From assembly GCA_045106455.1 (NCBI GenBank), contig JBGCEL010000004.1, positions 6,434 through 70,433 of the forward strand: a stretch of 64,000 bases of DNA, written 5' to 3'. The stretch comes from Gammaproteobacteria bacterium (lineage in GTDB: Bacteria > Pseudomonadota > Gammaproteobacteria > Steroidobacterales > JBCCMA01). Shown here piece by piece: positions 9,493 through 15,620 of this stretch. Every line of letters starts with the position of its first letter. Position 1 is the first letter of the stretch. The position numbers and the translations under genes were made by a program. Under the pieces are notes generated by a model that saw only the letters and a list, made by a program, of their open reading frames with translations, made no database searches and was not told the origin of the DNA.

Positions 9493-12291
9493 TTAGAGGC
9501 AGCGCAAGTCGAATTTCCCATCTGCCTTGTGCTGATTGTTAAGATACGGTGCACCGGCAAGTGGTCGTGTGCTTTGCAACTTCACAATAAGCGTACCGCT
9601 TGCCGCATCCTGGTAGAACACGCCGCTCTTACTCGAGTCGTTGAACGTACGTAATTCGTCAAGGGTCAGCGCTTGATGCACAGGCTTGATGTTGGATCCC
9701 GGCCAATTGGTTAGCACATAGTCGGAGGGCTTGCTGCAGTTCGGCGCGAAGTGCGCGGCCGACGGTCCATCGATGATCATCGCTGACGTCCAATCGCCTA
9801 GATCGAGGGTTTCGATCCAGATCAGGTTCTTGTCCGGGGTCGTGCGAAAATCAAGATTGGTGATCCGATAGTTGATCGGTTGCGGTGTGTCCGCATACAT
9901 CTGAAACTTGGAAAACAACAACGCCGGGTCGCTGTTGCCAACCGTCGCATTGGTGTCCAGACGCGTCACGTCAAAAACCTGCTTATCGGACGCCGCGCCC
10001 GTATTTTCGCCCATCTGGAACTTGATCGACTGCGTCGGCGTCTGGCAACGCAAGATCGTCGACGCCGGAGTCGCCGGGTCGGCATCGGCGTTATTGGACT
10101 CGCGCACGCAATCCCCGGCAAGTTGGTTAAACGGATCGTCCGGACGTAAATACCCGGCAGCGCCGAACAACGATCCGTCAATGTCGTAGTTGGTCTCGCT
10201 GGCGTGAACGTCTCTCCAATTGAGCCCGAAGTGGCGCGTGTCGTAACTGATTCTGCGATACGGATCGTTCACAAAGTGAATTTGCTCCATCAAGTGATTG
10301 GCAAAATGCGCACGGCCAAATCGCGTAATGGGGGTCGGCGTGATTTCTTTGTTGTTCAGATACATCGGCGCCAGCGGTGCCGCAGGATAATCGAACGTTA
10401 CGTTTCGAAAGTGGTTGGGACCGTCGTACAAACCCCACCCTTTAAACAGGTTGTTTATGTTGCCGCGATCAACGCCCGGTATGCTCAGATCGGCGTGATA
10501 GTAGAGATCCTTATCCGCCGGCGTCAGGCCCTGATAATTCTCGCTGATACCGATGAAGACCGAATCGAAAAACTCCTGATTGCCAGTACCAAACCAACCA
10601 ATCGGCGCTTCTGCGACCACGGCGTTTTTGATGTGCGCCGTTTTTGCCAGACCCCGATAGTAAATGGCCGTTTTGCCCTGCTTGTAGGCATGCATTCCAT
10701 CAAACACCTGCGACGAGCCCGGTGCATAGCCGGTGACGGCTGGCTCACGATCAAACTCGTTGTCGGGATCGACCTGAGCCCCATCGGGCGCGCCGTCCCA
10801 GGTATGTCCGATACGTGTTGAGTAGGCGACATTGTCTTTGTAGTGCAATGTCTGGGAATTAATCGGCCGCACGTTTACCGGGCCCGCCAGACCGGCATAG
10901 TCGCAAAACTCGCCGTAGTTCGCCTGCGGTGCACCCTGGCTGTCGTAGCAATAGAGCTTGCGGATATAGGCATGCCAATAACCGCTACCGGAGTTGACCA
11001 CCACGTTGTCCTGAATCGTGTTGTTGCCGTTGGTGATCCAGAATCCGGCCGGTCCACGCCAGCGGGACAAGCCCACATCAATATCGGTCTGCAGCAGGTT
11101 TTCGCCGACGGCCGGTTCGATAACATCGACCACCAGATTGCCGATCAACGTATTCTCAATTTCGTTGCCGTTCTCAAGGAAGATCGCGTGACCCACCACG
11201 TTGTAGCAAAGGTTGTTACGAATATCGGCTTGATGCGTGTTGTGCAGGGCGACGCAGCGACTGGCGGAATCATGAATCGACGAATTGCGCAGGTACTGTC
11301 CTGTGACCAGTCCGGCATGATGCCAATGCACGGGATACCGACCAAGAATCTTCTGCTGACCCATGCGCTGGAATTCCACCGCGTCAATGCGCGCGGTCGC
11401 ACCGGGCATGATCATCAGGTGACCGCCTTTGGGTCGTGGGGCGTTCCAGTAGCTGTCATTGGCACCGCGAATCGTAATGTTGCGTTCAAGATTGGCCAGA
11501 TAGGCGCGCATATCGGCCACCAGGTCCTGCCCATTTTCGCCTGCAGCCGGATAGACCTTTGGCGCACCGCCGTAGTGGAAATGCTCCAGCGCACTGTCGA
11601 TCGCACACGTCCCCGCAGGGCAGTTATCGTCGAGCGTCAGTAATTCGGTTTGATCGAAATAAGTGCTGGTGGTGGTGAGGATAATCTGATCGCCCTTCTC
11701 CCAGCCGCCCGCACCCGCGGTAAGCAAGGAGGACTGATCGGCCTTGGCGTCCTGATTCAGACGCGAGAAACGCACCTTGGTCAGCTGACCGTGCAAATCC
11801 AGCGTGCCGCCGTTCATGACCACAAACGCACGCTCGCCGTGAGTGGATGGTGCAGGAAACGAGCGGTTATTTCGCAAGGTGAAGGTCACGTTGCCATCGA
11901 ACCGATTGCTGGCAGTGCCGCATTCGAGCTTGGCGTTCGGCCCCGCCACAATAATGCCGTCCGCCTTCACTACCGCATTGACGCCCGCCGCGCAGCGCAG
12001 CGTGCCGTTCACCGTAATCAGCCCGCAGTTGGTGTTGCCGGTAATTTGATACACCACGCCATTATCTGGAATCACGATATCCGGCGGGCCGCCACCCACC
12101 GGTTGCAAGCCGCACAAATTAGTGAGTTGCGCGGACGGCGCCGGCGTCACAATCGTTGGTGCCACCAGCGCCGATGTCACGGGCGGCAATGGCACGGCGG
12201 TCGGTGTCGTGACCGCAGGCGTTACCTGAGCGGCGCTGGCCAGTGAAAGCAACCCGGCGATTAGCCCGGTGGTTAATTGCGTATGTTTCAT
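9493..12291 (-). CDS. secreted G8-domain / right-handed beta-helix protein (CEMIP/TMEM2-like architecture)
   Basis: Signal peptide MKHTQLTTGLIAGLLSLASAAQ. G8-like glycine-rich region (ITVNGTLRCAAG...IIVAGPNAKLECGT). GRYPVHWHHAG motif and PbH1-like repeats (NSSIHDSASRCVALHNTHQADIRNNLCYNVVGHAIFLENGN). AAGGA SD before ATG 12291. Confidence 0.7.
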   Translation of the reverse strand: MKHTQLTTGLIAGLLSLASAAQVTPAVTTPTAVPLPPVTSALVAPTIVTPAPSAQLTNLCGLQPVGGGPPDIVIPDNGVVYQITGNTNCGLITVNGTLRCAAGVNAVVKADGIIVAGPNAKLECGTASNRFDGNVTFTLRNNRSFPAPSTHGERAFVVMNGGTLDLHGQLTKVRFSRLNQDAKADQSSLLTAGAGGWEKGDQIILTTTSTYFDQTELLTLDDNCPAGTCAIDSALEHFHYGGAPKVYPAAGENGQDLVADMRAYLANLERNITIRGANDSYWNAPRPKGGHLMIMPGATARIDAVEFQRMGQQKILGRYPVHWHHAGLVTGQYLRNSSIHDSASRCVALHNTHQADIRNNLCYNVVGHAIFLENGNEIENTLIGNLVVDVIEPAVGENLLQTDIDVGLSRWRGPAGFWITNGNNTIQDNVVVNSGSGYWHAYIRKLYCYDSQGAPQANYGEFCDYAGLAGPVNVRPINSQTLHYKDNVAYSTRIGHTWDGAPDGAQVDPDNEFDREPAVTGYAPGSSQVFDGMHAYKQGKTAIYYRGLAKTAHIKNAVVAEAPIGWFGTGNQEFFDSVFIGISENYQGLTPADKDLYYHADLSIPGVDRGNINNLFKGWGLYDGPNHFRNVTFDYPAAPLAPMYLNNKEITPTPITRFGRAHFANHLMEQIHFVNDPYRRISYDTRHFGLNWRDVHASETNYDIDGSLFGAAGYLRPDDPFNQLAGDCVRESNNADADPATPASTILRCQTPTQSIKFQMGENTGAASDKQVFDVTRLDTNATVGNSDPALLFSKFQMYADTPQPINYRITNLDFRTTPDKNLIWIETLDLGDWTSAMIIDGPSAAHFAPNCSKPSDYVLTNWPGSNIKPVHQALTLDELRTFNDSSKSGVFYQDAASGTLIVKLQSTRPLAGAPYLNNQHKADGKFDLRCL

Positions 12292-12323
12292 ATCGATCCT
12301 TTTTTATTCAAGATTTGCGGCGA

Positions 12324-15300: not shown

Positions 15301-15620
15301 AGAAAGTTAGCCACGTACAGACGCGACAGTCGCGCGTTATAGCGCACCGACACTGGCTCAAGGCCCACGCGCACACGCGCCAATCGGCGATCGTCCGCGG
15401 ATTCATTCGTATCGTAAATTTCGAGCGTACCGTTGCGCGTATTCAATGCGGCGAGATAGTCATGTCCGCCCAAGCGCACCACCTCCAGCGCGTGCACTTG
15501 CGGGCTCTCGACGTTGAAATAGTCGCTGCGGCCTTGCGCCGTAGCGCTCACATGCCCGGCGCACAAGGCCATCACAACCCACACCCGGCTATGCCAGCTG
15601 CACAATTTTCGTGTCGACAT
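12324..15620 (-). CDS. exported beta-propeller protein fused to a dihaem cytochrome c peroxidase (CCP/MauG)-like domain
   Basis: Start re-picked at ATG 15620 (GGAGGGGAAGGTG directly upstream), giving signal [30 protein letters not shown]. Two haem-binding CxxCH motifs: [32 protein letters not shown] (classic CCP context) and [11 protein letters not shown]. The N-terminal half has repeat character ([27 protein letters not shown]). It lies 32 nt upstream of the G8 gene, so an operon is likely. Confidence 0.7.
   Translation of the reverse strand: [1098 protein letters not shown]

Follow-up and report, generated by a model that had tools for sequence, protein, structure and literature searches.

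Two genes for large exported proteins, one resembling diheme peroxidases and the other the animal CEMIP/TMEM2 family, stand 32 nucleotides (nt) apart on the minus strand of a gammaproteobacterial contig, which raises the question of why they are encoded side by side. They lie in a 64,000-nt window, the whole stretch of DNA analyzed here (positions 6,434 to 70,433 of contig JBGCEL010000004.1, a 142-kb contig of a Gammaproteobacteria metagenome-assembled genome, MAG). The original prediction saw in them an oxidative plus glycan-active extracellular pair, possibly controlled by a divergently encoded extracytoplasmic function (ECF) sigma factor. Since the pair is not conserved in related loci, where a sigma factor module and a promoter-like motif do recur, the two genes appear to be co-regulated members of a regulon rather than partners. 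We put at roughly two in three the probability that they form an operon with a promoter under the control of the neighboring ECF-type sigma module, joining two independent members of its regulon.

The heme-protein gene (12324-15620, minus strand) encodes 1098 amino acids (aa) from an ATG at 15620, with GGAGG 8 nt upstream and a stop codon at 12324-12326. Its mechanically called open reading frame (ORF) reaches a GTG at 15740; since the stretch up to this GTG overlaps the divergent gene, the ATG at 15620 is the plausible start. The G8-protein gene (9493-12291, minus strand) encodes 932 aa and is preceded by an AGGA ribosome-binding site within the intercistronic spacer of exactly 32 nt (12292-12323, minus strand). 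The coordinates and both Shine-Dalgarno-type sites thus agree with the two large exported proteins originally described. N-terminal signal-peptide-like sequences are present on both, that of the G8 protein being MKHTQLTTGLIAGLLSLASA with the cleavage site before AQ, and NCBI names the products 'cytochrome c peroxidase' and 'G8 domain-containing protein'. A terminator scan found no terminator-like hairpin on the minus strand between the genes, and a position-weight-matrix scan found no copy of the promoter-like motif GGGGCAA-N14-GACTCC in the 32-nt spacer. The narrow gap and the absence of a terminator and of a second motif suggest that the two genes are co-transcribed; the G8 gene, having no motif of its own in the window, would therefore depend on the promoter before the heme gene. 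A GC-rich hairpin (GTCACCCG ... CGGGTGAC, 9447-9477, minus strand), read from the sequence and unscored by the terminator scan, lies 16 nt past the G8 stop codon and, although lacking a T run, may mark the end of the operon. A sigma-70 promoter scan of positions 9000-16400 gave no match, and Rfam and repeat scans of 8500-21600 returned nothing relevant.

To our question the related loci (labeled here with L numbers) give a consistent answer. Flanks were limited to 10 kb and contigs were often short, so partners farther off would be missed. Within these limits, none of 85 G8 loci has a heme-family gene and none of 84 heme-family loci has a G8 gene. Likewise, tblastn searches (E<=1e-5) found a heme homologue in 0 of 80 genome loci around G8 relatives and a G8 homologue in 0 of 80 metagenome loci around heme-family genes. 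The closest G8 orthologues (70% identity), in L001 (a 171-kb contig) and L002, have no heme gene nearby; the G8 orthologues P0005, P0010, and P0011 are solitary, and neither G8 paralogue of Acidobacteria bacterium Mor1 adjoins a heme gene. Heme orthologues on long contigs (52-55% identity; L003, L004/5, L006) have unrelated neighbors and no G8 gene. The original prediction had itself named lack of conservation elsewhere as counting against a dedicated pair, and the genes were apart in every locus examined. The enzyme-pair claim should not be carried forward.

What recurs is a promoter-like motif. Comparison of the regions upstream of heme- and G8-protein genes in the window, L089, L087, L088, and L009 revealed a common bipartite sequence with fixed spacing, GGGGCAA(A/C)-N13-GACTCC, for which the pattern GGGGCAA-N14-GACTCC, specifying 13 bases, was used in searches. 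The 64-kb window contains two exact copies, and 100 shuffles contained none. The first (GGGGCAAAGCAATCGGGCATTGACTCC, 15654-15680, minus strand) is situated 33 nt before the heme-protein ATG, within the 102-nt divergent intergenic region. The second (18931-18957, plus strand) lies inside the 3' end of a gene for a CHAT (caspase-like) protein, 62 nt before a gene for a 246-aa membrane protein; L088, L175, and L176 have a copy at the corresponding place. Back to back with the G-run of the first copy is a plus-strand GGGCAAC box (15683-15697; CCCCCCCGGGCAAC), for which no GACTCC lies at the appropriate distance.

Across 174 loci, GGGCAA-N14-GACTCC occurs in only three independent places, directly before a G8 orthologue (L001, L087) or a heme orthologue (L089). 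Two loci obtained after the motif had been defined, L175 and L176, both have an exact copy before the anti-sigma-like gene, as predicted, and L176 has another before its divergent diheme gene, also as predicted. A position-weight matrix run over 4.9 million positions gave 11 matches scoring >=21, all of them beside module or cargo genes; ten are within 100 nt of a start codon, and the eleventh is beside the Mor1 sigma gene. The scan additionally found G8 orthologues in L007 and L002, and the motif is present 50-100 nt upstream of the start codon in six of nine independent G8 orthologue loci. In the heme family, it stands directly before the gene only in the window and L089; the L175 member is part of the module operon, and the match in L095 is weak. 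A copy in L088 (3665-3697, minus strand; score 21.5) lies in a divergent region, with some 500 nt separating it from the next gene on that strand (DUF819), where there could be a long leader or an unannotated gene.

The second recurring element is the gene module encoded divergently from the heme gene. Its first gene (15723-16307, plus strand) encodes a 194-aa protein to which NCBIfam ECF models align full-length, below their cut-offs. The top PDB matches of a profile built from four orthologues are all ECF sigma factors (6dxo, E 1.1e-4), and more than 266 homologues were found, some with PF07638 or PF08281; NCBI names the product 'RNA polymerase sigma factor'. These matches, weak but consistent, indicate that the protein is probably an ECF-type sigma factor. 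The GTG start of the next gene (16304-19027, plus strand) overlaps the sigma stop codon (GTGA). Its product is a tetratricopeptide repeat (TPR)-CHAT protein with the motifs of a His (LHIDAHG) and Cys (LSSCRS) dyad and a lipoprotein signal (MRWSLIASLSVTCILTAC); it is a lipoprotein in L175 and L088 as well. A 246-aa single-pass membrane protein follows (19020-19760, plus strand), with about 85 N-terminal residues in the cytoplasm, a single transmembrane helix, and a periplasmic domain; orthologues of the same layout are present in L088, L175, and L176. Its topology, its position, and the motif upstream suggest that it is an anti-sigma factor. The last module gene (19773-21413, plus strand) encodes an exported subtilase (S8)-like protein of 546 aa (Pfam Peptidase_S8, E 2.4e-5), whose orthologues follow the module in L088, L009, L175, and L176.

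The module is constant, and the large secreted proteins adjoining it vary. In Mor1 (L088), the genes for the sigma factor, the CHAT protein, a 275-aa membrane protein, and the S8-like protein are followed directly, on one strand, by a G8 orthologue, and in L009, a related Acidobacteriota MAG, the S8-like gene likewise precedes a G8 gene. In L175, a Pseudomonadota MAG, the same order (here with a 272-aa membrane protein) leads directly into a heme-family gene. The closest heme orthologue (55%), in L089, is located immediately before sigma and CHAT genes. In L176, a related gammaproteobacterial contig with the closest sigma factor (62-68%), the module, with a 266-aa membrane protein, faces a divergent diheme gene. 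Two unrelated genomes have a penicillin-amidase (Ntn-hydrolase) gene near the sigma-CHAT genes: that of L087 (16620-20438) is the immediate upstream neighbor of the sigma gene, and that of L175 (1-1232) is about 2.7 kb away. Neither was seen to have the motif immediately before it; they may be further cargo.

The motif precedes the membrane-protein gene in all four complete modules, which come from three phyla. Because its orientation is strict, its spacer fixed, and start codons near, and because all four modules have it, the motif is consistent with a sigma-dependent promoter and negative feedback by way of an anti-sigma factor, and we infer that it is the promoter of the neighboring sigma factor. 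The earlier suggestion that the divergent sigma factor controls the operon has therefore gained a motif before the operon and before a putative anti-sigma gene; this support is bioinformatic. Several observations weigh on the other side. The motif is tied to the sigma factor only by position and co-occurrence. The general ECF model TIGR02937 scores 27.7 bits on the sigma protein (residues 24-172), below its cut-off of 42.9. A profile of the putative anti-sigma factor has no PDB match, and its Pfam result is one match to DUF4880 (0.045) in a single member. The motif or module is present at about 3 of about 85 heme-family loci, so such regulation is the exception for that family. Inspection and the matrix scan found no motif before the sigma gene, and classical autoregulation of the sigma gene is thus not seen. 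Finally, the Mor1 genome holds a diheme protein and a G8 protein along with the module, and a related assembly contains diheme and G8 genes both preceded by the motif (L176 and L001, from the same sample, though perhaps not from a single genome). These last two cases make cooperation at the level of the regulon, on a common extracellular substrate, possible, which is a weaker claim than a dedicated pair.

If the motif is the promoter of this sigma factor, an extracytoplasmic signal would cause the CHAT protein, the S8-like protease, or both to cleave the single-pass membrane protein, and the sigma factor would be freed. RNA polymerase bearing it would then start at GGGGCAA-N14-GACTCC promoters. 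One of these would drive the anti-sigma and S8-like genes, providing feedback, and the other would drive the heme gene and, by read-through of the 32-nt spacer, the G8 gene. Both products would be exported and act independently. Under the regulon reading, the heme and G8 genes are adjacent because both are 'cargo' of the same regulon, and neither needs the other.

The one studied example of an ECF sigma factor with a TPR-CHAT anti-sigma factor is DdvS/DdvA of Myxococcus xanthus (PMC11506125). DdvA combines an anti-sigma domain, a membrane helix, and a CHAT protease in one protein, and its activation has been proposed to involve self-cleavage and then RseP (PMC11506125). In both systems the ECF sigma gene adjoins a gene for a large TPR-CHAT protein that is located outside the cytoplasm and bears a His-Cys dyad, and the proposed logic is release of the sigma factor by proteolysis. 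However, the CHAT protein of the module is a lipoprotein without an anti-sigma domain or transmembrane helix, and the anti-sigma candidate is the separate 246-aa protein. The apparent outputs also differ, being secreted enzymes for the module and CBASS (cyclic oligonucleotide-based antiphage signaling system) and CRISPR defense genes for DdvS. The module looks like a split version of DdvS/DdvA. Single CHAT and sigma sequences had no match in the PDB, hence none to DdvA or DdvS structures. By gene context alone, the module also resembles ECF54, a group defined in Actinobacteria (classification in PMC7826278), whose sigma genes have carboxypeptidase, subtilase, and CHAT genes nearby and no known anti-sigma factor (PMC8999054). 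CHAT and subtilase genes near the sigma gene are common to both, and proteolytic control has been proposed for ECF54 (PMC8999054); unlike ECF54, which was described without an anti-sigma factor, the module has the 246-aa candidate. No promoter motif and no G8 or diheme targets for ECF54 were found reported in the searchable literature.

The heme protein consists of a signal peptide, a seven-bladed YVTN beta-propeller (about aa 30-445), a diheme domain resembling cytochrome c peroxidase (CCP) and MauG (about aa 446-740), and some 360 further residues at the C terminus. An AlphaFold model derived from an alignment of 64 homologues (predicted local distance difference test, pLDDT, 91.9; predicted template-modeling score, pTM, 0.93) resolves the 415 N-terminal residues, earlier noted as a repeat-rich half, as a YVTN-type propeller, with hydrazine synthase beta (5c2v_B) and an archaeal YVTN propeller (1l0q) as its best PDB matches. 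Foldseek with the whole model returned propeller matches only. The two CxxCH sites described in a CCP/MauG-like context are C480-A-S-C-H484 (14169-14183, minus strand), whose flanks align to MbnH, the hydrazine synthase (HZS) gamma subunit, and CCPs, and C643-A-M-C-H647 (13680-13694, minus strand), which has weak Cytochrome_CBB3 and Cytochrom_C matches. Both are invariant in the 64 full-length homologues, as are, among further residues, W494, Q529, and H553/W554. Pfam CCP_MauG (PF03150) matches above its cut-off (32.5 bits versus 25.6), over residues 459-512 only (profile positions 3-58 of 149). A profile of the diheme domain matches MbnH (6e1c, 9e-6), hydrazine synthase gamma (5c2v_C, 1.8e-5), and classical peroxidases in the PDB, with these matches confined to the region of the first heme site. 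W554, within the invariant PYHWRxD, is a candidate inter-heme Trp; alignments to solved CCP/MauG structures stop short of it and assign no distal ligand (Met or Tyr) to the second heme. The protein shares with the CCP/MauG/MbnH superfamily two CxxCH motifs about 160 residues apart and the sequence around the first heme, which aligns with MbnH and CCPs. It differs in that the similarity is limited to the first heme site, the domain sits between a 415-aa propeller and a 360-aa unmatched C-terminal region, and the whole is 1098 aa versus about 320-390 aa in the known enzymes. The C-terminal region (aa 736-1098) has no Pfam family even at E<=10. Presumably the protein is an H2O2- or O2-dependent oxidoreductase.

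The same arrangement of a seven-bladed propeller followed by a CCP-like diheme domain is found in the hydrazine synthase beta-gamma fusion of the Scalindua type. HZS-beta is the top structural match of the propeller, and HZS-gamma aligns around the first heme, including the GLxWDLG stretch. The NCBIfam model hydrazine_BC for the fused subunits matches collinearly, although at 27 bits against a cut-off of 1250; the heme protein further differs in its extra C-terminal domain and in coming from an organism outside the anammox bacteria. A Pfam scan of window genes found no alpha-subunit (HZS_alpha) protein. Distant relatives of the fused beta-gamma subunit have been described as 'highly prevalent in environmental bacteria', their function not being known, and these non-anammox relatives keep a CCP/MauG-type Trp and lack the catalytic residues of hydrazine synthase (PMC12758564). 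The heme protein fits this description. Its family is large (546 matches among the scored candidates), and marine Acidobacteriota and 'Deltaproteobacteria' MAGs encode several paralogues each. The divergent diheme gene of L176 (6768-9893, minus strand), which has an exact motif copy upstream, encodes a secreted protein of 1041 aa with an HZS_alpha middle domain (PF18582) and two CxxCH sites; it was considered as a homologue of the heme protein and rejected, the sequences being unrelated.

The G8 protein is an exported right-handed beta-helix, collinear with the TMEM2 ectodomain except for the inserted lectin-like domain 1, which it lacks. Both the G8-like region and the beta-helix core around GRYPVHWHH that had been noted from the sequence are recovered by Pfam above the gathering scores: G8 (PF10162; E 2.6e-12, 47.1 bits versus 22.9, residues 72-179) and CEMIP_beta-hel (PF24606; E 3.5e-50, 171.1 bits versus 27.3, residues 289-444). 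GRYPVHWHH (aa 317-325; 11317-11343, minus strand) forms the first rung of a conserved His/Glu ladder, of which Y319, P320, H322, H324, H350, H368, and E373 are invariant in 38 homologues and also present in TMEM2; W323 of the HWHH motif is nearly invariant. In hmmsearch, the family profile matches the TMEM2 ectodomain (8c6i) with E 5.9e-142 over two collinear stretches, and TMEM2 chain residues ~166-339, the inserted lectin-like/GG domain, have no counterpart in the G8 protein. The AlphaFold model (pLDDT 86.8) is a continuous helix that Foldseek matches to 8c6i with a TM-score of 0.72 (E 2.6e-39), followed by phage and bacterial polysaccharide depolymerases. The protein is presumably a binder or cleaver of an extracellular glycan. 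G8 relatives are common in bacteria (at least 565 among the 600 pattern-matched stretches listed from species-representative genomes), and no characterized bacterial G8/CEMIP homologue was found in the literature.

Hyaluronan depolymerization by the animal relatives, which the original prediction took as established, is disputed for TMEM2, whose ectodomain showed no hyaluronidase activity in vitro and has no assignable active site (PMC10206443); the functional precedent is therefore weaker than was assumed. The G8 protein matches TMEM2 (CEMIP2) and CEMIP (KIAA1199, HYBID) full-length and collinearly in the G8 region, beta-helix, and C-terminal domain, and has YPxHxH, H350, GH368, and E373 in common with them. 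In contrast to TMEM2, however, it lacks domain 1, the seat of residues whose mutation lowers hyaluronan degradation (PMC10206443). A cleavable signal peptide takes the place of the type II membrane anchor of TMEM2, TMEM2 has a Phe at the position of W323, and the marine bacterium that encodes the G8 protein has no obvious source of hyaluronan. A gene of the GH16 family is located 11 kb from the G8 gene (23314-25410, minus strand), and a 60% identical orthologue (L001, 16442-18415) lies 4 kb from the 70% identical G8 orthologue of that contig, which suggests loose synteny in related Gammaproteobacteria. The window encodes a second GH16/Big_12 protein of 2070 aa (55221-61433).

Other explanations of the locus have to be set against the regulon reading. 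In a dedicated, co-evolved extracellular pair, the diheme enzyme would oxidize the polymer cut by the beta-helix protein, or supply or remove peroxide for it. The shared strand, the 32-nt gap, and the common promoter are what such a pair would look like, both protein types occur behind the same motif in different organisms, and one assembly has a motif-driven G8 gene (L001) together with a motif-driven diheme gene (L176). However, their adjacency recurs at none of the 85 G8 or 84 heme loci, heme-family genes are mostly solitary with unrelated neighbors, and the diheme cargo of L176 is a different, non-homologous protein; we consider the pair unlikely. Maturation in the manner of MauG or MbnH is a more specific form of partnership. 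MauG acts on methylamine dehydrogenase and MbnH on MbnP, and adjacency of the genes for diheme enzyme and substrate protein is the rule in these systems. By analogy, the heme protein would oxidize the G8 protein at one residue, such as W323 in HWHH, to create a cofactor or metal site. MbnH (6e1c) is indeed the top PDB sequence match of the heme domain, and the invariant His ladder includes the nearly invariant Trp, but a diheme gene stands beside the G8 orthologue in 0 of 9 other loci, TMEM2 has Phe in place of the Trp, and the heme family, mostly solitary, greatly exceeds the G8 orthologue group in size, all of which makes maturation highly improbable.

Incidental adjacency would dispense with the sigma factor altogether. 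The motif would then be some other conserved element, such as a repressor or activator site or a remnant of mobile cargo, consistent with its absence before the sigma gene and with its presence before the G8 gene of L001, where no module lies within 10 kb. This alternative is doubtful, since the 14-nt spacing is fixed, the orientation strict, and the distance to start codons 33-100 nt, and since the motif precedes the anti-sigma-like gene in 4/4 complete modules, as a feedback promoter would. The regulon reading can also be extended into a bolder proposal, which we regard as tentative at best: an ECF regulon spanning Gammaproteobacteria, other Pseudomonadota, and Acidobacteriota, with split sensing by CHAT protease, anti-sigma factor, and subtilase, a GGGGCAA-N14-GACTCC read-out, a CEMIP/TMEM2 orthologue as core output, and hydrazine-synthase-like diheme proteins as accessory outputs, in which beta-helix and heme enzymes would attack the same extracellular polymer.

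As a regulon element, the motif would give an uncharacterized ECF-type sigma factor a concrete set of targets in a CHAT and subtilase neighborhood previously noted as context only. The small membrane protein suggests that the missing anti-sigma factor was perhaps overlooked in earlier context surveys, and the CHAT and S8-like proteins are candidate site-1 proteases, which would make the module a split DdvA. One inducible switch would tie together bacterial CEMIP/TMEM2 homologues and hydrazine-synthase-like propeller-diheme proteins, both large, widespread, and unstudied families, so that forcing the sigma factor on would be a practical way to express them and seek their substrates. Because the hyaluronidase status of TMEM2 is disputed, a bacterial orthologue with the same His/Glu ladder should be a useful model, and if the cross-phylum regulon were real, the bacterial system would offer a genetically tractable route to the role of the CEMIP/TMEM2 fold.

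Elsewhere in the window, a 1161-aa ORF (51063-54548, minus strand) has no Pfam match at E<=0.001. Genes for a VIT-VWA protein (730 aa) and then a sortase-domain protein (213 aa) are located at 2069-4824 (minus strand), a set resembling the 'marine proteobacterial sortase' system. A row of three genes for HlyD-type membrane-fusion proteins, of which the first also has a GAF domain, occupies 25470-30807; next come genes for a Big_9/cadherin/DUF2341 protein of 1954 aa (30686-36550), a hybrid histidine kinase, and a GGDEF-EAL response regulator.

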